Of a DNA stretch of 10,375 nt, positions 1-9,599 are shown one piece after another. Both the position numbers and the translations under genes were made by a program. Within the stretch, counting starts at the first letter, position 1; every line of letters starts with the position of its first letter. The notes beneath the pieces were generated by a model, which was not told where the DNA came from, did not search any database, and saw only the letters and a program-made list of their open reading frames with translations. Location of the stretch: the IMG/VR virus record IMGVR_UViG_2690316347_000010. One strand, 5' to 3'. Source of the stretch: a virus (Duplodnaviria > Heunggongvirae > Uroviricota > Caudoviricetes).

Positions 1-142
1 CACGTTTTAATCCAGGTCGGCCTGTCCTTGTTCCGCTTAATTTATCTTCAAATATTTGTTCATATCCTGCACAAACAAGAGCGTTTCGTTGCAGGTCTGT
101 ATTCTGGTCATTTGTTGATACCCTTACATAGCCAATCAGCAC
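1..142 (-). CDS. pin: Serine DNA invertase (Pin/Gin/Hin/Cin family), N-terminal 47 codons only; partial, runs off the left window edge
   Basis: Reverse complement of 1..142 is identical to 5776..5917 and encodes MLIGYVRVSTNDQNTDLQRNALVCAGYEQIFEDKLSGTRTGRPGL, which matches the N-terminus of e14 Pin and Mu Gin-type invertases as I recall them, including the catalytic-serine region (VRVSTNDQ). GTG start at 140..142 (minus) with a GGGAG Shine-Dalgarno 7 nt upstream. Whether this copy is intact cannot be seen from the window. Confidence 0.65.
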   Translation of the reverse strand, partial: MLIGYVRVSTNDQNTDLQRNALVCAGYEQIFEDKLSGTRTGRPGLKR

Positions 143-196
143 GCTGAATCTCCCGTCCAAAAGCACAAATCATGCCATGCAGGCCAGAAACCGCCA

Positions 197-222
197 TTAT
201 CTAAAACCTCGGTTTACAGGAA
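197..222 (-). other. 26-bp invertase crossover site (gix/pix-like), pixA, inverted orientation
   Basis: Sequence ttatctaaaacctcggtttacaggaa is the exact reverse complement of the site at 5696..5721. It has two imperfect 12-bp half-sites around a central tc/ga dinucleotide and closely matches the Mu gix / e14 pix consensus as I recall it. It lies between the pin 5' end and the start of the fibre cassette, the canonical position. Confidence 0.8.
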
Positions 223-267
223 ACGGTAAACAAGGCTGGTAACGCCGTTCAGCGTTCCGGCGATAAA

Positions 268-1110
268 ATGACCGGAGAACTGAAAATTGGCACGGTGAAT
301 GCGCTGCGAATTTTCAATGATACCTTCGGTCTAATTTTCCGTCGTTCAGAAGATTTTCTTCATTTCATTCCGACGGCTGAAGGACAAGGCGAAAACGGTA
401 ATATCGGCCCATTAAGGCCATTCGCTATAAATCTGAGAACAGGTGCTATATCTGTCAGCCACGGGGCCAAAATTAAAGGAGGTCTAGCTATTGGAGCTAC
501 TGATAACGCACTGGGTGAAAACTCCATTGTTCTGGGAGATAACGACACCGGATTTAGGCAAGATGGAGATGGTATTATTAGCTTCTATTCAAATGGTTCG
601 CGCATCGGACATATTGATGAGTTAGGATTACATCTTTATAAAGATATTGAATCTAATGGCAGCAATTTTAGATTAAAAAGTAATTACCGCCACCACATTA
701 CATTCGCCAACGAAGACGGAAGAATTCGTATGTTTTTGTGGAAAGATAACGGTGGTGATGGTGTTCATATTAATAACGGTTCAGATGGTGGTGGTGATTT
801 CATTTTTAAAACAGATGGGGGATTTGCGCTGGGAAGTGGTGCGCAAGTTGCGTCTAGTGGCGATATTTATGGTTCAGTGTGGGAAAACAACTGGTTAAGC
901 ACATGGCTGCATAATCATGTCGTTCGGGATATTCGTCTTGGCAGCATTGAATATAAAAACGTATGGCGCGACTACGGCTTTGGCGATGCGTCAGGTTATG
1001 TTTTAACAGCCGCAATTAACAGCAATGCGGATGATATTGTCGACACTGTTGCCAGAAGGCCAATTCAGAAATTGATTGGGGGAATATGGTACAACGTGGG
1101 GAGTGTTTAA
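268..1110 (+). CDS. Alternative (silent) tail-fibre C-terminal variable cassette, 280-aa ORF; frame is open from 205, just inside the crossover site
   Basis: Contains the phage tail-fibre repeat [20 protein letters not shown] (compare [20 protein letters not shown] in stf) and a glycine-rich C-terminal domain. No Shine-Dalgarno before ATG 268, and an in-frame TAA at 202..204 sits inside the outer half-site, as expected for a promoterless cassette expressed only after fusion to the stf constant region. Followed immediately by a tfa gene. Confidence 0.8.
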
Positions 1111-1111
1111 G

Positions 1112-1639
1112 ATGATGCACCTGAAAAATATTAAGGCCGGGAATCCGAAAACACCGGAACAATACCAGCTAACTAAAAAAGCGGGCGTGGTATGGCTCTT
1201 TTGCGAAGATGGCAAAAACTGGTATGAGGAACAAAAGAATTTTCAGCCAGACACCATAAAAATTGCTTACGATGAGAACAACATCATCGTTGCTGTCAGT
1301 AAAGACGTTTCAACTATTAATCCTGAAGGGCTAAGCATAGTTGAAGTTCCTGATATTACGGCAAATCGTCACGCAGACAATAACGGAAAATGGATGTTTC
1401 TGGATGGTAAAGTAGTAAAGAGGGAATATACAGAACAGGAACTGCAACAACAGGCCGAATCACAAAAGGCCGCATTGCTTTCCGAAGCTGAATCAGTCAT
1501 CCAGCCGCTGGAACGCGCTGTCAGGCTGAATATGGCGACGGACGAGGAACGCACACGACTGGAAGCATGGGAACGCTACAGTGTTCTGGTCAGCCGTGTG
1601 GATACGGCAAATCCTGAATGGCCACAAAAGCCTGAATAA
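1112..1639 (+). CDS. tfa: Tail fibre assembly chaperone Tfa (ORF track starts at 1076; the start is more likely ATG 1112 or 1115, giving MMHLKNI/MHLKNI)
   Basis: N-terminus [23 protein letters not shown] and overall sequence resemble lambda Tfa / Mu U family chaperones. GGGAG Shine-Dalgarno at 1098..1102. Start lies 1 nt after the cassette stop (TAA 1108..1110). Paralogous (about half identical by eye) to the convergent 177-aa ORF. Confidence 0.88.
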
Positions 1640-1672
1640 AAATTAAGGCCCGATAGCGGGCCTTCTCTCATT
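1631..1672. terminator. Bidirectional intrinsic terminator between the convergent tfa genes
   Basis: Perfect 8-bp stem aaggcccg (1645..1652), loop atag, cgggcctt (1657..1664). On the minus strand the stem is followed by ttaatttttatt; on the plus strand by a weaker ctctcattct run. It sits exactly between the stop codons of the two tfa genes (1637..1639 and 1668..1670). Confidence 0.6.
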
Positions 1673-2201
1673 CTGGTTGTTCGGGAAACGTTACTGGCAG
1701 GCTGGAGGTGTCTGTGGATTCAACCTTCTGCGCATAGAGCATCCACTCGGTTAATTTTTGTTTATTCTCATCGGAAATGATGCCCAGCTGTAGCTGAGAG
1801 TCCCACAGCTGGGTTTTATCCCTGACGAGCTGCAGCAGGCTCTGCTTTTCATTTTCCGCTTGTTGCCTTTGCTCTTCCTCGGTATAAGTTCGCTTTATCA
1901 CCGCACCATCTTTGAACATCCAGTTGCCCGAAATATCAGCCCGGCGATTTGCTGTAATATCAGGCAACTCAACGACACTTAAACCTTCTGGATTAATTGC
2001 TGATACATCCTTGTCTATAGCAATAATTATTCCCTCAACTGTGTAAGCCAGTTTTATTGTATCCTCCTGAAAGTTTTTTAATTCCTCATGCCAATTTTTT
2101 CCATCTTCGGACCATAACCAGATAACATCAAAATTCTTTGTTAGCTGGTATTGTTCAACGGTTTTTGGATTACCTGCGACAATGTTTTTTAAATGCTGCA
2201 T
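1668..2201 (-). CDS. tfa: Tail fibre assembly chaperone Tfa, second allele (177 aa), presumed partner of the stf-resident C-terminal domain
   Basis: [23 protein letters not shown]...; Tfa/Mu U-like, convergent with the 187-aa tfa. ATG at 2199..2201 lies 2 nt after the stop of the 48-aa ORF (translational coupling). Confidence 0.88.
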
Positions 2202-2203
2202 GA

Positions 2204-2350
2204 TTATACCTGCGATACGTTATACCATGTTCCGTTAATTAACTTTTGTATTGGTCTGAATACTGCCGGATCATCACCATCGACTTCACCGATAATACCA
2301 AGCCCCGTGATTACATGGCCTGATTTTTCATACATCACGCCTTTCTTCAT
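2204..2350 (-). CDS. 48-aa ORF in frame with stf, separated from it only by TAG + ACC; likely the detached ancestral C-terminal tail of the fibre
   Basis: [48 protein letters not shown]. Its C-terminus ([17 protein letters not shown]) parallels the C-terminus of the 280-aa cassette ([18 protein letters not shown]). Below the ORF-track size cutoff; found by manual translation. Confidence 0.45.
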
Positions 2351-2353
2351 GGT

Positions 2354-4282
2354 CTAAACAACTCGTGTGCCAAGTCTGACATCTCTCACATAGCGGGAAT
2401 CAAAGTTACCGTAATCCGAGGGATTAACACGTCCCGTAATATTTATGGTTTTATTACTTTGAATGCTTCCGGAGACAAAGCGCATAACATGGACGTTATT
2501 AGCATAAACATCCAGATTACCATCGCCTTTTTGTTTAAAGCCCGTGTCATTATCACCCAATACAATCGAATTACCGCCAAGAGCACTGGATGTTCCGATA
2601 CCCAGTGCACCATTCAGTTGACCACCAGATAACGGCAGTGCACCAACATCTCCTGCTGAAGGTTTTCTGGTGGTGTAAAATTCGGACCAGTCGGCTTCAA
2701 AACCATAACCATCACGGGCTGAACGATAAAAAATACCGCCATTTTTATAATTAATCCGAAACTGAGCTGCAGGACAACTTCCTTCTCCCATATAAAAATG
2801 AATAATTAACGTTGATGCACCACTAATAGTTGCGTTATAGGCTCCGCTACTCCAGTTCCATCCAACTGCTTTATCATTCGCAACGGTGCTTCCTGTTTTC
2901 CCTAAGGCAAACGCACCAACATGACTTGCTTTTAATGTGATATCGGAGGAACCATCAAAAGCCACATTGCTTATTTTCCTGGCAGTTTTTAATTTTGCAG
3001 CTGTAGAAGCATTGCCGGATAGTTCACCAGAAAGGCCACCGCTGAATGTTTGTCGATTAGTCCAGGTATTCGCTGTACTGAGTAACGGTATTTTCTCCCC
3101 GCTTGTGCCGAGTTCTCGTAAACCGAGGTATTCGATAACGGCAGCAACGGTCGATTTCGCAAGAATATCCCGCCCGACTTTTGTCAGGGTTGCCAGGCTG
3201 GCGACATCATTCCCCGTAAAATACGGAAACTTGCCTGCCGCAGTAGTAAGTCCGGCCAGCGCCGTCAGGGTGGCATCTTTCGGTTGCTTACCCGCAAGCG
3301 CGTTAGTCATGGTGGTCGCAAAATTCGGGTCGTTGCCCAGCGCCGCAGCCAGCTCGTTCAGCGTGTTCAGTGCATCAGGTGACGAATCTACAAGGGCGGC
3401 AATCGCAGCCATAACGAAAGCCGTGCTTGCGATTTGGGTATTATTCGTTCCCTGTCGCGCAGTTGGTGTTGTTGGCGTTCCGGTCAGTGCAGGACTATTT
3501 AAGGGCGCTTTCTTGTTCGTTTCACCCATTACCGCCTTAACCGCTTTTGGCGTTGCCGCCAGTGACTCGGAAGTGCTGTTGGTCGCACTGCTGAGCTGTA
3601 CTATCCCCTTTTTCGTCGTGCTCGCATCCTCCAGCGCCACGGCGGATGCAATATCCTCTGCCCGTTTTGCTGCTGTCTCGGCGCGCGTTGCCGCGGATTC
3701 AGCAGCAACTTTGCTCTGAGATGCAGCCGTCGCACTGCCTGCCGCCTCTGATGCTTTCGTTGTTGCTGTCGTGGCACTACCTTTCGCTGCTGACGCTTGT
3801 CTGGTCGCCTCATCTTTTGAAGCAGACGCAGATGATGCCGATGACGCCGCTGAACTGGCTGACGATGCGGCTGCTGCCTTAGAGGAAGCAGCATTGTCTG
3901 CTGAAGTCTTTGCATTTGTTTCAGAGGTTTTTGCTGCAGAAGCAGACCTCGCTGCTGCAGTGGCTTGCTCAGTGGCTTTGCCAGCCTTCGTTGTGGCTGT
4001 TGAAGCGGATGATGCGGCGCTTTCTGCCGATTTTCCGGCGGCGGTGGCACTGGCTGAGGCCTGCCCGGCACTTGTTGACGCGGCACTGGCAGATAATGCA
4101 GCCGCTGTTTTTGAACCTGCCGCAGCTGAGGCGCTCTGTCCCGCTGCTGTTTCAGAAGACTTAGCGTTCGTCTCGGACGTTTTTGCCGCCTTCGCGGAAT
4201 TTCCTGCCGCCGTTGCCGAGGAAGCTGCACTACTGGCACTTGATGATGCATTCGTTTCTGAATATCGGGCCTTAATTTTTAT
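2354..4282 (-). pseudogene. stf: 5'-truncated duplicate of stf (about residues 241–875); no start codon or N-terminal domain
   Basis: 2183..4262 matches 6801..8880 (offset 4618). The open frame runs upstream to an in-frame TGA at 4283..4285, with no ATG/GTG/TTG until GTG 3640, which is why the ORF track reports only 428 aa. The 5' junction lies 17 nt after the stop of the right-hand tfa copy. Confidence 0.65.
3113..3138 (+). other. gix/pix-like crossover site inside the truncated stf copy (pixB), at the constant/variable junction
   Basis: ttctcgtaaaccgaggtattcgataa matches pixC at 22 of 26 positions with the same central GA dinucleotide. Encodes ...VIEYLGLRE... in stf. Inverted relative to pixA. 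Confidence 0.7.
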
Positions 4283-4806
4283 TCAGGCTTTTGTGGCCAT
4301 TCAGGATTTGCCGTATCCACACGGCTGACCAGAACACTGTAGCGTTCCCATGCTTCCAGTCGTGTGCGTTCCTCGTCTGTTGCCATATTCAGCCTGACAG
4401 CGCGTTCCAGCGGCTGGATGACTGATTCAGCTTCGGAAAGCAATGCGGCCTTTTGTGATTCGGCCTGTTGTTGCAGTTCCTGTTCTGTATATTCCCTCTT
4501 TACTACTTTACCATCCAGAAACATCCATTTTCCGTTATTGTCTGCGTGACGATTTGCCGTAATATCAGGAACTTCAACTATGCTTAGCCCTTCAGGATTA
4601 ATAGTTGAAACGTCTTTACTGACAGCAACGATGATGTTGTTCTCATCGTAAGCAATTTTTATGGTGTCTGGCTGAAAATTCTTTTGTTCCTCATACCAGT
4701 TTTTGCCATCTTCGCAAAAGAGCCATACCACGCCCGCTTTTTTAGTTAGCTGGTATTGTTCCGGTGTTTTCGGATTCCCGGCCTTAATATTTTTCAGGTG
4801 CATCAT
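4279..4806 (-). CDS. tfa: Tail fibre assembly chaperone Tfa (identical copy of 1112..1639)
   Basis: Protein identical to the left-hand 187-aa ORF; part of the inverted repeat R1'. Confidence 0.85.
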
Positions 4807-4807
4807 C

Positions 4808-5650
4808 TTAAACACTCCCCACGTTGTACCATATTCCCCCAATCAATTTCTGAATTGGCCTTCTGGCAACAGTGTCGACAATATCATCCGCATTGCTGTT
4901 AATTGCGGCTGTTAAAACATAACCTGACGCATCGCCAAAGCCGTAGTCGCGCCATACGTTTTTATATTCAATGCTGCCAAGACGAATATCCCGAACGACA
5001 TGATTATGCAGCCATGTGCTTAACCAGTTGTTTTCCCACACTGAACCATAAATATCGCCACTAGACGCAACTTGCGCACCACTTCCCAGCGCAAATCCCC
5101 CATCTGTTTTAAAAATGAAATCACCACCACCATCTGAACCGTTATTAATATGAACACCATCACCACCGTTATCTTTCCACAAAAACATACGAATTCTTCC
5201 GTCTTCGTTGGCGAATGTAATGTGGTGGCGGTAATTACTTTTTAATCTAAAATTGCTGCCATTAGATTCAATATCTTTATAAAGATGTAATCCTAACTCA
5301 TCAATATGTCCGATGCGCGAACCATTTGAATAGAAGCTAATAATACCATCTCCATCTTGCCTAAATCCGGTGTCGTTATCTCCCAGAACAATGGAGTTTT
5401 CACCCAGTGCGTTATCAGTAGCTCCAATAGCTAGACCTCCTTTAATTTTGGCCCCGTGGCTGACAGATATAGCACCTGTTCTCAGATTTATAGCGAATGG
5501 CCTTAATGGGCCGATATTACCGTTTTCGCCTTGTCCTTCAGCCGTCGGAATGAAATGAAGAAAATCTTCTGAACGACGGAAAATTAGACCGAAGGTATCA
5601 TTGAAAATTCGCAGCGCATTCACCGTGCCAATTTTCAGTTCTCCGGTCAT
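4808..5650 (-). CDS. Alternative tail-fibre C-terminal variable cassette (identical copy of 268..1110); frame open up to the crossover site
   Basis: Protein identical to the left-hand 280-aa ORF; lies directly downstream (minus strand) of pixC. Confidence 0.8.
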
Positions 5651-5695
5651 TTTATCGCCGGAACGCTGAACGGCGTTACCAGCCTTGTTTACCGT

Positions 5696-5721
5696 TTCCT
5701 GTAAACCGAGGTTTTAGATAA
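5696..5721 (+). other. 26-bp invertase crossover site (gix/pix-like), pixC
   Basis: ttcctgtaaaccgaggttttagataa; sits between the pin remnant and the fibre cassette. Direct orientation relative to pixB and pixD, inverted relative to pixA. Confidence 0.8.
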
Positions 5722-5775
5722 TGGCGGTTTCTGGCCTGCATGGCATGATTTGTGCTTTTGGACGGGAGATTCAGC

Positions 5776-6102
5776 GTGCTGATTGGCTATGTAAGGGTAT
5801 CAACAAATGACCAGAATACAGACCTGCAACGAAACGCTCTTGTTTGTGCAGGATATGAACAAATATTTGAAGATAAATTAAGCGGAACAAGGACAGGCCG
5901 ACCTGGATTAAAACGTGCTTTAAAGCGCCTTCAAAAAGGTGACGCACTGGTTGTCTGAAAACTGGACTGACTGGGTCACTGTATGCGGCATCTTGTCGTG
6001 CTGGTGGTGGAAGCCTAGAAAAAGTATCGGGTGTTGCTGAACCGTGTTGATACATCAACTGCACCTGATATTGAGTGGCCTACGAACCCTGTCAGGGAGT
6101 AA
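5776..6102 (+). pseudogene. pin: Pin/Gin-family serine invertase, decayed: first 60 codons intact, then in-frame TGA, TGA, TAG and TAA; 3' part divergent and cut short by the methyltransferase gene
   Basis: Translation from GTG 5776 gives MLIGYVRVSTNDQ...LQKGDALVV*KLD*LGHCMRHLVVLVVEA*..., against a remembered Pin sequence ...[29 protein letters not shown].... Stops at 5956..5958, 5968..5970, 6016..6018 and 6100..6102. The ORF track's 5752 start is an upstream in-frame GTG; homology points to 5776. Confidence 0.7.
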
Positions 6103-6156
6103 TCATTGGGATTATGCCGCAGCACGTCTTAAGCAAGAACGTGCTGCGGTTGGATG

Positions 6157-6819
6157 CTATTTTTTCCCTGAAGCGGAAAACATTACTACAGTACCTTGAA
6201 CCTTGGTTTTAACATTCTCGAAATGCTCTGAGAGTATATGTGTTAAGCCTTCTTCGGAATCTTTTGTGTTTGAAAAGATGCCTTTCTGATTGTAAATGCG
6301 CATCAGTTTTTGACCGAAGCTATTGTGCACAACTCCATCGCCAAGAATTGTGGCTCCGTATAGAGTTCCATCGTCAGTTAAGGCCTGCGCCGCATTGCGT
6401 ATTACACAGCTTTTTGTAGATATATTTCCAGGCAGGCAGTGAAGAAGGTAAAACATGGAAATGGAATCAAATTGACCATGTAACGCCGCGGGATAAGGTT
6501 CAAAAACATCATGGCTAATTTTATGTTTAATTTTTGATTCCCCAGCCCTTGTAGATGCCGCGTTCAGGCTAGCTTCGTTCAAATCCATTAAAGATATCAG
6601 ACTACTCTCAGGTACGTGAGTAAGGTAAAACCCAGTTCCAACACCAATATCCAGATGGTTGTTACCTAAATGTTCCAGAAAGTGTGGAAGAAGGTGTTCC
6701 TTTGTAGGACATCCCCATGCAAGCCGATTTGATACTCCCAAAACCCACCAGTCATAAAGCTTTAGGGTAAGTGGTGTGTAAATTTTAGCCCCATCATCTG
6801 TGTTTATTAAATGCTGCAT
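6157..6819 (-). CDS. Putative class I SAM-dependent methyltransferase (220 aa) in the position normally held by tfa
   Basis: Glycine-rich motif-I-like segment LDIGVGTGF. Shares start codon, Shine-Dalgarno context and first codons (MQHL-N) with the 177-aa tfa, then diverges. ATG lies 2 nt after the stop of the 48-aa ORF. May be related to the DLP12 prophage YbcY methyltransferase-like gene that sits among tfa remnants in E. coli K-12; this is from memory and unverified. Confidence 0.6.
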   Translation of the reverse strand: MQHLINTDDGAKIYTPLTLKLYDWWVLGVSNRLAWGCPTKEHLLPHFLEHLGNNHLDIGVGTGFYLTHVPESSLISLMDLNEASLNAASTRAGESKIKHKISHDVFEPYPAALHGQFDSISMFYLLHCLPGNISTKSCVIRNAAQALTDDGTLYGATILGDGVVHNSFGQKLMRIYNQKGIFSNTKDSEEGLTHILSEHFENVKTKVQGTVVMFSASGKK

Positions 6820-6821
6820 GA

Positions 6822-6968
6822 TTATACCTGCGATACGTTATACCATGTTCCGTTAATTAACTTTTGTATTGGTCTGAATACTGCCGGATCATCACCATCG
6901 ACTTCACCGATAATACCAAGCCCCGTGATTACATGGCCTGATTTTTCATACATCACGCCTTTCTTCAT
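6822..6968 (-). CDS. 48-aa ORF (copy of 2204..2350), in frame with stf after a single TAG
   Basis: Identical to the copy at 2204..2350; separated from stf only by TAG (6972..6974) + ACC. Confidence 0.45.
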   Translation of the reverse strand: MKKGVMYEKSGHVITGLGIIGEVDGDDPAVFRPIQKLINGTWYNVSQV

Positions 6969-6971
6969 GGT

Positions 6972-9599
6972 CTAAACAACTCGTGTGCCAAGTCTGACAT
7001 CTCTCACATAGCGGGAATCAAAGTTACCGTAATCCGAGGGATTAACACGTCCCGTAATATTTATGGTTTTATTACTTTGAATGCTTCCGGAGACAAAGCG
7101 CATAACATGGACGTTATTAGCATAAACATCCAGATTACCATCGCCTTTTTGTTTAAAGCCCGTGTCATTATCACCCAATACAATCGAATTACCGCCAAGA
7201 GCACTGGATGTTCCGATACCCAGTGCACCATTCAGTTGACCACCAGATAACGGCAGTGCACCAACATCTCCTGCTGAAGGTTTTCTGGTGGTGTAAAATT
7301 CGGACCAGTCGGCTTCAAAACCATAACCATCACGGGCTGAACGATAAAAAATACCGCCATTTTTATAATTAATCCGAAACTGAGCTGCAGGACAACTTCC
7401 TTCTCCCATATAAAAATGAATAATTAACGTTGATGCACCACTAATAGTTGCGTTATAGGCTCCGCTACTCCAGTTCCATCCAACTGCTTTATCATTCGCA
7501 ACGGTGCTTCCTGTTTTCCCTAAGGCAAACGCACCAACATGACTTGCTTTTAATGTGATATCGGAGGAACCATCAAAAGCCACATTGCTTATTTTCCTGG
7601 CAGTTTTTAATTTTGCAGCTGTAGAAGCATTGCCGGATAGTTCACCAGAAAGGCCACCGCTGAATGTTTGTCGATTAGTCCAGGTATTCGCTGTACTGAG
7701 TAACGGTATTTTCTCCCCGCTTGTGCCGAGTTCTCGTAAACCGAGGTATTCGATAACGGCAGCAACGGTCGATTTCGCAAGAATATCCCGCCCGACTTTT
7801 GTCAGGGTTGCCAGGCTGGCGACATCATTCCCCGTAAAATACGGAAACTTGCCTGCCGCAGTAGTAAGTCCGGCCAGCGCCGTCAGGGTGGCATCTTTCG
7901 GTTGCTTACCCGCAAGCGCGTTAGTCATGGTGGTCGCAAAATTCGGGTCGTTGCCCAGCGCCGCAGCCAGCTCGTTCAGCGTGTTCAGTGCATCAGGTGA
8001 CGAATCTACAAGGGCGGCAATCGCAGCCATAACGAAAGCCGTGCTTGCGATTTGGGTATTATTCGTTCCCTGTCGCGCAGTTGGTGTTGTTGGCGTTCCG
8101 GTCAGTGCAGGACTATTTAAGGGCGCTTTCTTGTTCGTTTCACCCATTACCGCCTTAACCGCTTTTGGCGTTGCCGCCAGTGACTCGGAAGTGCTGTTGG
8201 TCGCACTGCTGAGCTGTACTATCCCCTTTTTCGTCGTGCTCGCATCCTCCAGCGCCACGGCGGATGCAATATCCTCTGCCCGTTTTGCTGCTGTCTCGGC
8301 GCGCGTTGCCGCGGATTCAGCAGCAACTTTGCTCTGAGATGCAGCCGTCGCACTGCCTGCCGCCTCTGATGCTTTCGTTGTTGCTGTCGTGGCACTACCT
8401 TTCGCTGCTGACGCTTGTCTGGTCGCCTCATCTTTTGAAGCAGACGCAGATGATGCCGATGACGCCGCTGAACTGGCTGACGATGCGGCTGCTGCCTTAG
8501 AGGAAGCAGCATTGTCTGCTGAAGTCTTTGCATTTGTTTCAGAGGTTTTTGCTGCAGAAGCAGACCTCGCTGCTGCAGTGGCTTGCTCAGTGGCTTTGCC
8601 AGCCTTCGTTGTGGCTGTTGAAGCGGATGATGCGGCGCTTTCTGCCGATTTTCCGGCGGCGGTGGCACTGGCTGAGGCCTGCCCGGCACTTGTTGACGCG
8701 GCACTGGCAGATAATGCAGCCGCTGTTTTTGAACCTGCCGCAGCTGAGGCGCTCTGTCCCGCTGCTGTTTCAGAAGACTTAGCGTTCGTCTCGGACGTTT
8801 TTGCCGCCTTCGCGGAATTTCCTGCCGCCGTTGCCGAGGAAGCTGCACTACTGGCACTTGATGATGCATTCGTTTCTGAAGATTTCGCTGCCTCTTTTGA
8901 GGCCGCCGCACCCCGTGCCGAGGTGGCAGCTTCTGACGCCTTCGTGGTCGCTGTGGATGCAGAAGTGGCTGCCGATTTTTGTGATGCTGCGGCATTCGTT
9001 TCTGACGTTTTCGCGGCACTGGCGCTGGTAGCTGCCGCGCTTTTTGATGACTCTGCAGCAGCACTTTTTGCTGCTTCACGGGCCTTTGTCGATGCCGTTC
9101 CTGCGCTGGAAGACGCTGACTGAGCCGACGACGCGGCCTGTCCGGCTGACGTGCTGGCGGCACGTGCTGAGGCTGCAGCATCGGTTGCATGAGTTGCCGC
9201 CTCGCTGGCTGATTTTTTCGCGGCTGCCGTATTCTGTGCAACCGCGGAGGCGTTACGTGACACCTCTTCCACCATCTGCTCAAAGCGGCGCAGTGCCTCC
9301 GGTCGGACATCATCCTCCGTCATGGCACCGAGAAAATCATTCAGCGTACCTGGTCTGGAACCTTCATAGACGGTAATGGTCCCGGCATGTGAAGGCGGAA
9401 AACCTTCAACCAGCAGGGTGACGCTGTACTGACCATGCTCAACATCCATGCTGTAACGTCCGGCTTCATCCGGATTTTCAGAGGCCACCGTGTTCACCAC
9501 CATCGTGCTGCTGGTTCGTCTGGCCTTCAGCACAATGGTGCAGTTCTGTACTGGTTTTCCTGTGCCATCTTTAAGCACGCCAGAAATTTTTACTGTCAT
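6972..9599 (-). CDS. stf: Side tail fibre protein Stf, full length (875 aa): conserved N-terminal domain, Ala/Ser-rich repetitive shaft, C-terminal receptor-binding domain
   Basis: N-terminus MTVKISGVLKDGTGKPVQNCTIVLKARR...GQYSVTLLVEGFPPSHAGTITVYE closely matches lambda/Rac Stf as I recall it. Long SETNA/Ala-Ser repeat region; C-terminal [14 protein letters not shown] fibre repeat. Lies downstream of lom as in lambda. Confidence 0.92.
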   Translation of the reverse strand: MTVKISGVLKDGTGKPVQNCTIVLKARRTSSTMVVNTVASENPDEAGRYSMDVEHGQYSVTLLVEGFPPSHAGTITVYEGSRPGTLNDFLGAMTEDDVRPEALRRFEQMVEEVSRNASAVAQNTAAAKKSASEAATHATDAAASARAASTSAGQAASSAQSASSSAGTASTKAREAAKSAAAESSKSAAATSASAAKTSETNAAASQKSAATSASTATTKASEAATSARGAAASKEAAKSSETNASSSASSAASSATAAGNSAKAAKTSETNAKSSETAAGQSASAAAGSKTAAALSASAASTSAGQASASATAAGKSAESAASSASTATTKAGKATEQATAAARSASAAKTSETNAKTSADNAASSKAAAASSASSAASSASSASASKDEATRQASAAKGSATTATTKASEAAGSATAASQSKVAAESAATRAETAAKRAEDIASAVALEDASTTKKGIVQLSSATNSTSESLAATPKAVKAVMGETNKKAPLNSPALTGTPTTPTARQGTNNTQIASTAFVMAAIAALVDSSPDALNTLNELAAALGNDPNFATTMTNALAGKQPKDATLTALAGLTTAAGKFPYFTGNDVASLATLTKVGRDILAKSTVAAVIEYLGLRELGTSGEKIPLLSTANTWTNRQTFSGGLSGELSGNASTAAKLKTARKISNVAFDGSSDITLKASHVGAFALGKTGSTVANDKAVGWNWSSGAYNATISGASTLIIHFYMGEGSCPAAQFRINYKNGGIFYRSARDGYGFEADWSEFYTTRKPSAGDVGALPLSGGQLNGALGIGTSSALGGNSIVLGDNDTGFKQKGDGNLDVYANNVHVMRFVSGSIQSNKTINITGRVNPSDYGNFDSRYVRDVRLGTRVV
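7731..7756 (+). other. gix/pix-like crossover site inside full-length stf (pixD)
   Basis: Identical to pixB (offset 4618); 22 of 26 match to pixC with the same central dinucleotide; encodes VIEYLGLRE. Confidence 0.7.

Follow-up and report, generated by a model that had tools for sequence, protein, structure and literature searches.

A truncated Gin-family invertase gene fused to tfa beside an invertible tail fibre cassette of a lambdoid prophage

Introduction

The wild-type invertases Gin, Hin and Cin require an enhancer located in cis on the same supercoiled molecule. In phage Mu, the Fis sites lie inside the coding region of gin (PMC3378877). In the Salmonella Hin system, the hix crossover site is accompanied by two Fis sites within the 5' part of the invertase gene, and the proximal one lies about 100 bp from hixL (PMC3798978). 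Regulatory Fis sites carry pyrimidine-purine steps at ±3-4 (PMC4784862). An example of an invertase acting on another element is given by PinQ, encoded by a cryptic prophage other than e14: it flips the P segment of e14 (PMC12529663).

The closest described system is prophage Phi4 of the Escherichia coli ST131 strain EC958, for which a truncated DNA invertase, EC958_1582, has been reported (Forde et al. 2014, PLoS One, PMC4134206). The invertible segment of Phi4 measures 3,106 bp and was found in both orientations among the PacBio reads of one culture (PMC4134206). The invertase of a second prophage, Phi1, was proposed as the likely enzyme acting in trans because the crossover sites of Phi1 and Phi4 are nearly identical, and the Phi4 protein was stated to lack the C-terminal DNA-binding domain (PMC4134206).

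Here we analyze a stretch of 10,375 nucleotides, hereafter the window, taken from the Caudoviricetes virus record IMGVR_UViG_2690316347_000010 of IMG/VR. It contains the relic of an invertase gene, which an initial annotation had interpreted from the sequence alone, and we show below how this locus compares with the described systems.

Results

The features of the window are collected in Table 1. The reading frame of the relic begins with GTG and runs through 60 sense codons, its product on plus-strand translation being VLIGYVRVSTNDQNTDLQRNALVCAGYEQIFEDKLSGTRTGRPGLKRALKRLQKGDALVV. These codons are followed by a TGA, the codons for KLD, a second TGA, 16 codons, a TAG (6016-6018), 27 codons and a TAA (6100-6102). 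The 60-residue frame matches the Pfam Resolvase profile with an E value of 2.9e-15, so its homology to invertases is not due to chance. DNA alignments with Mu gin, SfMu gin, e14 pinE and the Phi1 invertase gene of EC958 revealed that nucleotides 1-79 of the relic are identical to Mu gin and to the Phi1 gene. Identity to Mu gin is about 97% over approximately the first 190 nucleotides, and nucleotides 208-232 (ATGCGGCATCTTGTCGTGCTGGTGG) are identical to e14 pin. The E value and the identity to Mu gin establish the descent of the relic from the Gin/Hin/Cin/Pin family. The first TGA occupies the place of the tryptophan of the VVWKLD motif, which is present in Mu Gin, SfMu Gin, the Phi1 invertase and e14 Pin. 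The relic peptide keeps the Ser9 motif VRVSTNDQ, and the amino-acid changes relative to Mu Gin are C27Y, D41G, T56A, R68H and S69C.

Table 1. Features of the 10,375-nucleotide window (s1 to s4, crossover sites; C1 and C2, alternative fibre cassettes)
Feature	Coordinates	Strand	Evidence or remark
Left-hand relic copy, first 142 nt	1..142	-	within 1,655-nt inverted duplication
Crossover site s1, opposite in orientation to s2, s3 and s4	197..222	-	
Crossover site s2, within truncated fibre-gene copy, TTCTCGTAAACCGAGGTATTCGATAA	3113..3138	+	
Silent alternative fibre C-terminal cassette C2, adjoining the relic; own tfa at 4279-4842	4808..5650	-	
gix-type crossover site s3, 26 bp, TTCCTGTAAACC GA GGTTTTAGATAA	5696..5721	+	matches Phi4 sites
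Invertase relic, first 232 nt (77 codons) of a Gin-family serine invertase gene	5776..6007	+	DNA alignments, Pfam, PGAP
Candidate proximal Fis core TATCAACAAATGACC	5798..5812	+	identical to Mu gin, SfMu gin and EC958 Phi1 invertase
Candidate distal Fis core GTGCAGGATATGAAC	5846..5860	+	one base changed relative to Mu gin, G to A at 5855
TGA in place of Trp61	5956..5958	+	TGG in Mu, SfMu, Phi1 and e14
TGA in place of Arg65	5968..5970	+	found in all relic alleles examined
tfa 3' end, last 95 nt, in-frame fusion to relic	6008..6102	+	PhiR26_1 identity, Pfam Caudo_TAP, PGAP
Class I SAM-dependent methyltransferase, lambdoid backbone; first 5 codons from tfa at J1	6157..6819	-	
Side tail fibre gene, constant part and cassette C1, early TAG at 6972-6974	6972..9599	-	
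Crossover site s4, within full-length fibre gene, direct orientation with s3	7731..7756	+	

The similarity to invertases stops sharply at 6007, and the junction 6007/6008 is in frame. From about 6005 to 6805, the window is 99.8% identical to phage PhiR26_1, and identity is 99.4-99.8% when several other lambdoid phages are considered with it. The gene order in these phages is stf, tfa and an opposite-strand methyltransferase gene, and the invertase is absent. Within the tfa piece, the TAG results from a TGG-to-TAG change (intact tfa reads EAWKKYRV) and the TAA is the natural stop of tfa; the nonsense codons derived from the invertase are the two TGAs only. When the stops were repaired, the translation matched positions 2-91 of 145 of the Resolvase profile and then, directly, positions 104-130 of 131 of Caudo_TAP. 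A full-length Caudo_TAP domain is absent from 6008-6102, which holds the last 27 of the 131 profile positions and the internal TAG. PGAP labels the relic of JJ1886, NCTC86, 4/0 and EC958 as a 'recombinase family protein', incomplete and missing its C-terminus, and the fused piece as a 'tail fiber assembly protein, missing N-terminus'. The letters DTST, considered as a Pin-like match, were rejected as a coincidence since they belong to the C-terminus of tfa (KKYRVLLNRVDTSTAPDIEWP).

Pfam searches detected neither a complete Resolvase catalytic domain (PF00239) in the relic, even with the stops repaired, nor the C-terminal helix-turn-helix domain (PF02796), the sequence past codon 77 being derived from tfa. 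There is likewise no uninterrupted invertase ORF of about 185-200 codons, the frame being stopped at codons 61 and 65 and the gene truncated at 77/78. No active enzyme is possible, because positions 92-145 of the Resolvase profile and the C-terminal DNA-binding region are missing. Judged from its sequence, the feature is a non-coding remnant of a Gin-family invertase gene, disabled mainly by truncation rather than a full-length gene riddled with nonsense codons.

Several statements of the initial annotation can be set against these data. The 60 codons, the TGA at the VVWKLD tryptophan, the second TGA, the TAG and the TAA are all present in the translation and in the alignment of homologues, and the conclusion that the enzyme is dead stands. 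The picture of a multi-nonsense pseudogene with fading homology is half right: the stops are real, with two TGAs in the invertase part, but the homology ends abruptly at 6007 and is followed by tfa. The relic was also placed beside the expressed fibre, a position that has to be corrected as it adjoins the silent cassette C2 in the window instead.

The order of these events was approached by scanning metagenome contigs for the exact fusion junction, and 15 contigs matched. All 15 carry the fusion together with the TGA at codon 65. The TGG is kept both at codon 61 and at the tfa tryptophan in six of them (L012, L016, L017, L022, L024 and L025), L014 has the TGA at codon 61 with the tfa TGG still intact, and the remaining contigs display all three premature stops, as in the window. 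Alleles with the same junction and fewer stops imply that truncation of the fragment preceded no fewer than two of the three premature stops. The allele series thus suggests truncation by fusion first and nonsense changes afterwards. A search for the pin-tfa fusion in GTDB representative genomes gave no matches.

The surroundings of the fusion vary among these contigs. In L016 and L024, an e14-type crossover site (TTCTCCCAAACCAACGTTTATGAAAA) and an e14-type upstream region stand ahead of the fusion of relic and tfa, and the changeover from e14-type sequence lies at about 5796, just before the proximal candidate Fis core. Different sequence, without the methyltransferase gene, is found 3' of the tfa end in L012 and L024. 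The joining of the fusion to varied flanks fits a possible spread by recombination among prophage fibre modules.

Of the 5,426 complete E. coli genomes, about 409 have the arrangement of relic, tfa and methyltransferase with at least 99% identity; EC958, JJ1886 and NCTC86 belong to this set. The window allele differs from that of NCTC86 at one base (5823) and from those of EC958 and JJ1886 at three (5823, 5975 and 6036), and the same four stops are present in the independent assemblies of these three strains. The host prophage is lambdoid, with gpJ, lom and a side tail fibre containing Pfam phage_tail_N, and is located at ompW beside the trp operon. EC958 positions 1487945-1488124 correspond to the relic of prophage Phi4. 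The likeness to Phi4 is close: the relic is the same, with 3 base differences in 335 nucleotides and the four stops shared, and fibre cassettes and tfa genes have the same mirror layout. The 26-bp crossover sites listed for Phi4 in Table 3 of PMC4134206 match those of the window. The duplicated arrangement, in contrast, is the window's own and is absent from EC958, and the window allele is nearest to that of NCTC86.

We then considered whether the cassette inverts. The complete E. coli genomes were queried with two 705-nucleotide sequences ending at the relic-tfa junction, with either C2 or C1 beside the relic. Among relic-bearing genomes, 144 have C2 in this position, as in the window, and 239 have C1, the inverted state. 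Two isolates of one Swedish series, 4/0 (urinary tract infection) and 4/1-1 (faeces), offer a direct comparison. Their flanks are 100% identical over 3,689 and 6,949 bp, and the sole difference between them is an exact inversion of 3,119 bp, in which six mismatches correspond exactly to exchanged half-sites. The sites TTCCTG...TTTTAG and TTCTCG...TATTCG of one isolate become TTCTCG...TTTTAG and TTCCTG...TATTCG in the other. Such a half-site swap characterizes conservative exchange at the core of the site as opposed to homologous recombination, and the same two site hybrids were seen in metagenome contigs. Both orientations thus exist in nature, with the exchange exactly at the sites. An inverted pair of 26-bp sites with identical central GA is present as s1/s2 and also in 4/0, 4/1-1 and EC958. 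Between s1 and s2, C2 and its tfa (268-1639) face a second tfa and C1 (1668-3112), giving mirror-image cassettes each with its own assembly gene, and this layout is also observed in JJ1886, NCTC86, 4/0 and EC958. Since s3 and s4 are in direct orientation, recombination between them would delete rather than invert, and the invertible pair in the window would be s1/s2.

The relic keeps 232 nucleotides, and the whole enhancer region is for this reason included in it. By positional homology and by comparison with the Hin sites, we take 5798-5812 and 5846-5860 to be candidate Fis cores. They are 48 bp apart centre-to-centre, the distance at which the two Hin Fis sites reportedly lie (Johnson, Glasgow and Simon 1987), and both have pyrimidine-purine steps at ±3-4. 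The centre of the proximal candidate core is about 96 bp from that of s3, a site located 55 bp upstream of the relic start codon. The G to A difference at 5855 falls at position +2 of the distal candidate core, and the stretch is otherwise identical to Mu gin, SfMu gin and the Phi1 gene. A degenerate pattern for the Fis pair (YR-N5-YR-NN-C, 33 nucleotides, G-NN-YR-N5-YR-NN-C) matches only the two relic copies in the window, and this pattern alone is not above chance, with 2 matches against 1.15 expected. Comparison of the relic alleles gave no signal of selection on the enhancer stretch (variable positions at 3 of 63 nucleotides against 3 of 146 elsewhere), the substitutions being few. In agreement with the initial annotation, the 5' end is retained together with a Gin/Hin-type candidate enhancer region, nucleotides 1-79 being those of Mu gin and the stretch with the two cores differing by one substitution.

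Intact invertases that could act on the cassette are found elsewhere in relic-bearing genomes. In EC958, the P2-like prophage Phi1 contains an intact invertase of 199 residues beside its own invertible fibre segment. The first 79 nucleotides of its gene are those of the relic, the adjacent crossover site is TTCTCGTAAACCGAGGTTTTAAATAA, and the gene is about 530 kb from the relic. Its 3' part, which is absent from the relic, was found with 100% identity in many relic-bearing ST131 genomes, in both orientations. Strain 4/0 has two other intact recombinase genes in a variant P2-like remnant. This rearranged remnant (L027, NZ_CP023849.1 955013-958406) occupies the Phi1 position; its recombinases WP_001375851.1 and WP_000904922.1 flank tail protein genes, in an invertible module unlike that of EC958.

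The window itself has an unusual structure, unlike that of any comparator prophage examined. Seen from the minus strand, positions 1-4262 have the canonical prophage layout. The stretch 1-1655 recurs in reverse complement at 4263-5917 with 2 mismatches, and positions 2183-4262 are repeated directly at 6801-8880 (2,080 nucleotides) with 1 mismatch. A second, inverted copy occupies positions 4263-6800. It spans the tfa of C2, C2 itself, the crossover site, the relic, the tfa fragment and the methyltransferase gene, and it sits between two direct copies of the 3' part of the fibre gene. Junction J2 (4262/4263) is located within a terminator-hairpin loop between convergent tfa genes and junction J1 (6800/6801) in an 8-nucleotide microhomology, TGTTTTTT. 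Neither junction was found in the 5,426 complete E. coli genomes, and J2, the sole junction scanned there, is absent from GTDB representatives and JGI metagenomes. Because the canonical prophage would be recovered by homologous recombination between the two 2,080-bp direct repeats, the duplication is either a very recent private rearrangement or an assembly artefact. A warning that assemblies of flipping regions can carry artefactual duplications has been issued (PMC4134206). An artefact of mixed orientations was rejected as a simple explanation: the junctions are off the crossover sites and the two copies share one switch state.

The inverted copies differ only at 1537/1540 versus 4381/4378, with synonymous changes in tfa (GCGACGGAC versus GCAACAGAC). 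Both variants are natural, the first resembling Mu and the second being that of NCTC86 and of EC958 Phi1, which suggests gene conversion, or reads mixed in from a paralogous prophage. Where C1 has its premature TAG (6972-6974, copy at 2354-2356, minus strand), NCTC86 has a glutamine (RVVQTMKKG). The last 49 codons of C1 are cut off and left as a separate ORF of 48 codons (6822-6968 and 2204-2350), so the 'expressed' fibre is itself damaged in the source of the window.

The N-terminus of the methyltransferase is chimeric at 6805-6819 (minus strand), where MQHLINTDDG replaces the MVKSMKKNTDDG of JJ1886; its start region and first codons are those of the tfa usually located after the fibre gene. 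This gene is flanked on both sides by 3' fragments of tfa that are 89% identical (6005-6151 versus JJ1886 L001 10455-10602), which hints at repeated recombination at tfa ends. Imperfect 33-nucleotide repeats (family D2) occur in the constant part of the fibre, at 3758-4273 and 8376-9017. They are presumably the internal repeat motif of the fibre, and 4262/4263 falls inside one of them.

Discussion

Taken as a whole, our analysis makes us confident that the feature is a truncated Gin-family relic whose enzyme is dead, whose cis elements are kept and whose cassette is flipped in trans. We propose the following scenario. An invertible fibre cassette similar to the Mu G segment would have been grafted into a lambdoid prophage (Phi4, in ST131, at ompW next to trp). 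Of the invertase, only the first 77 codons are left, in frame with the last 31 codons of the tfa of the backbone, and stops accumulated in the remnant after the fusion. The cis elements left are the 26-bp crossover site and the 5' stretch that serves as a Fis-dependent enhancer in Gin and Hin. The cassette could then invert whenever a compatible invertase is provided from elsewhere in the genome, the obvious source in ST131 being the intact Phi1 invertase acting with host Fis.

We propose that flipping of the cassette requires an invertase provided in trans, as the orientation polymorphism of relic-bearing genomes indicates. The initial annotation had advanced the same dependence, which this polymorphism and the proposal in PMC4134206 support, but it had also suggested the left-hand copy as a donor, for which this copy is a poor candidate. 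The left-hand copy shares the lineage of the right-hand relic, from which it does not differ over the 142 visible nucleotides, the relic-specific nucleotides 80 and 122 of the gene included, and each of the comparator genomes examined has this relic at the left-hand position. The similarity of the sites and the co-occurrence of the two prophages suggest that the Phi1 enzyme may be the one acting on Phi4.

A parallel can be drawn with three known systems. Like Mu and SfMu, the locus has a gix-type site with central GA and alternative fibre C-termini each with an assembly gene, and the 5' part of the coding region, in which Mu has its Fis sites, is identical to Mu gin over the first 79 nucleotides of the relic. 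Mu, however, has a complete gin gene of 193 codons in cis whereas the relic has only 77 codons, and the relic is hosted by a lambdoid prophage whose side tail fibre has a lambda-type N-terminus (Pfam phage_tail_N). The e14 Pin/P segment is likewise a chromosomal fibre switch of a cryptic prophage, on which an invertase from elsewhere in the genome can act (PMC12529663), and it is close to the relic in sequence through nucleotides 208-232 and through the e14-type site and upstream region of L016 and L024. On the other hand, e14 keeps its own intact pinE; the gene present in cis in Phi4 is dead, which makes supply in trans obligatory. Finally, Salmonella Hin/hix shows the succession of crossover site, interval and paired Fis sites that is predicted for the relic, but it controls a promoter instead of fibre cassettes and its enzyme is intact.

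A different history has been considered for the relic, in which point nonsense mutations, acquired one after another, killed a full-length pin gene whose homology was then lost by drift ahead of the methyltransferase gene. The two in-frame TGAs of the invertase part are genuine, and differences from Mu Gin are enriched in amino-acid changes, both of which speak for such a decay. We nevertheless find it very unlikely in view of the sharp 6007/6008 junction with the 3' end of tfa beyond it (99.8% to PhiR26_1), of the location of the TAG and TAA in tfa-derived sequence, and of the alleles that share the junction and have one TGA; the latter also contradict the initial annotation, which had attributed the death of a full-length gene to point nonsense. 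As for the possibility that the stops are errors of sequencing or assembly in a gene that is intact in the organism, the odd duplicated structure of the window may itself be an artefact of assembly, which lends it some credit. This possibility is refuted, as the changes are substitutions rather than homopolymer indels and identical stops with the fusion recur in hundreds of independently sequenced genomes (EC958, JJ1886 and NCTC86 among them) as well as in metagenome contigs; the stops had rightly been taken as real. One could also imagine that the 60-codon frame (5776-5955) is expressed as a functional short peptide, for example one interfering with invertase dimers, since the GTG start and the upstream region are conserved with functional gin and the Ser9 motif is kept. 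This seems highly improbable: the position of the first stop varies among alleles (codon 61 or 65), amino-acid changes affect conserved positions and nothing points to expression.

The most serious alternative concerns the role of the relic, which could be inert junk while inversion relies on another enhancer, on a Fis-independent variant of the invertase or on contacts independent of Fis and the enhancer. Fis-independent invertase mutants do exist, such as Gin M114V (PMC3575834). The 5' end could have been kept by an accident of the deletion endpoint, in line with the lack of a selection signal on the enhancer stretch, and the relic could spread with a cassette bounded by fibre-gene and tfa homology, as the occurrence of the fusion with differing flanks would allow. 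We regard this alternative as rather unlikely, though less so than the preceding ones. Against it, the wild-type enzymes need an enhancer in cis, the relic is the nearest candidate enhancer, lying at the native distance (about 96 bp) and almost unchanged from the functional Mu gin sequence, and the enhancer of Phi1 is some 530 kb away in EC958. Given the cis requirement and this distance, it is probable that the enhancer of the relic supports the observed inversion. A retained enhancer would be a sensible corollary of the well-known biology of Gin and Hin. A bolder reading is that the relic is kept as a stand-alone enhancer, the Phi4 fibre switch being a satellite of the invertase of another prophage and the cassette spreading as a unit among lambdoid phages, with fibre-gene and tfa homology as its bounds. 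This is possible, but we put it forward only tentatively.

Conclusions

The dead enzyme and the proposed trans dependence have already been published for the same locus (PMC4134206), a study that is silent on the tfa fusion, the internal stops, the enhancer and Fis. There is little new in the case of the relic, which is an ordinary and already known prophage feature. For those who annotate such regions, it can be retained that automatic annotation renders the relic as a partial recombinase and the silent cassettes as 'hypothetical' or 'tail fiber protein, incomplete', and that the window may be one example of artefactual duplication in assemblies of flipping regions.

The relic illustrates that cis-acting elements can outlive the gene in which they are embedded, and that prophages residing in one cell share recombination machinery. 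If the idea that only the enhancer has been kept were true, which experts of Gin and Hin would largely expect, the relic would be an orphan enhancer, through which the fibre switch of its prophage would rely on another prophage of the same cell.
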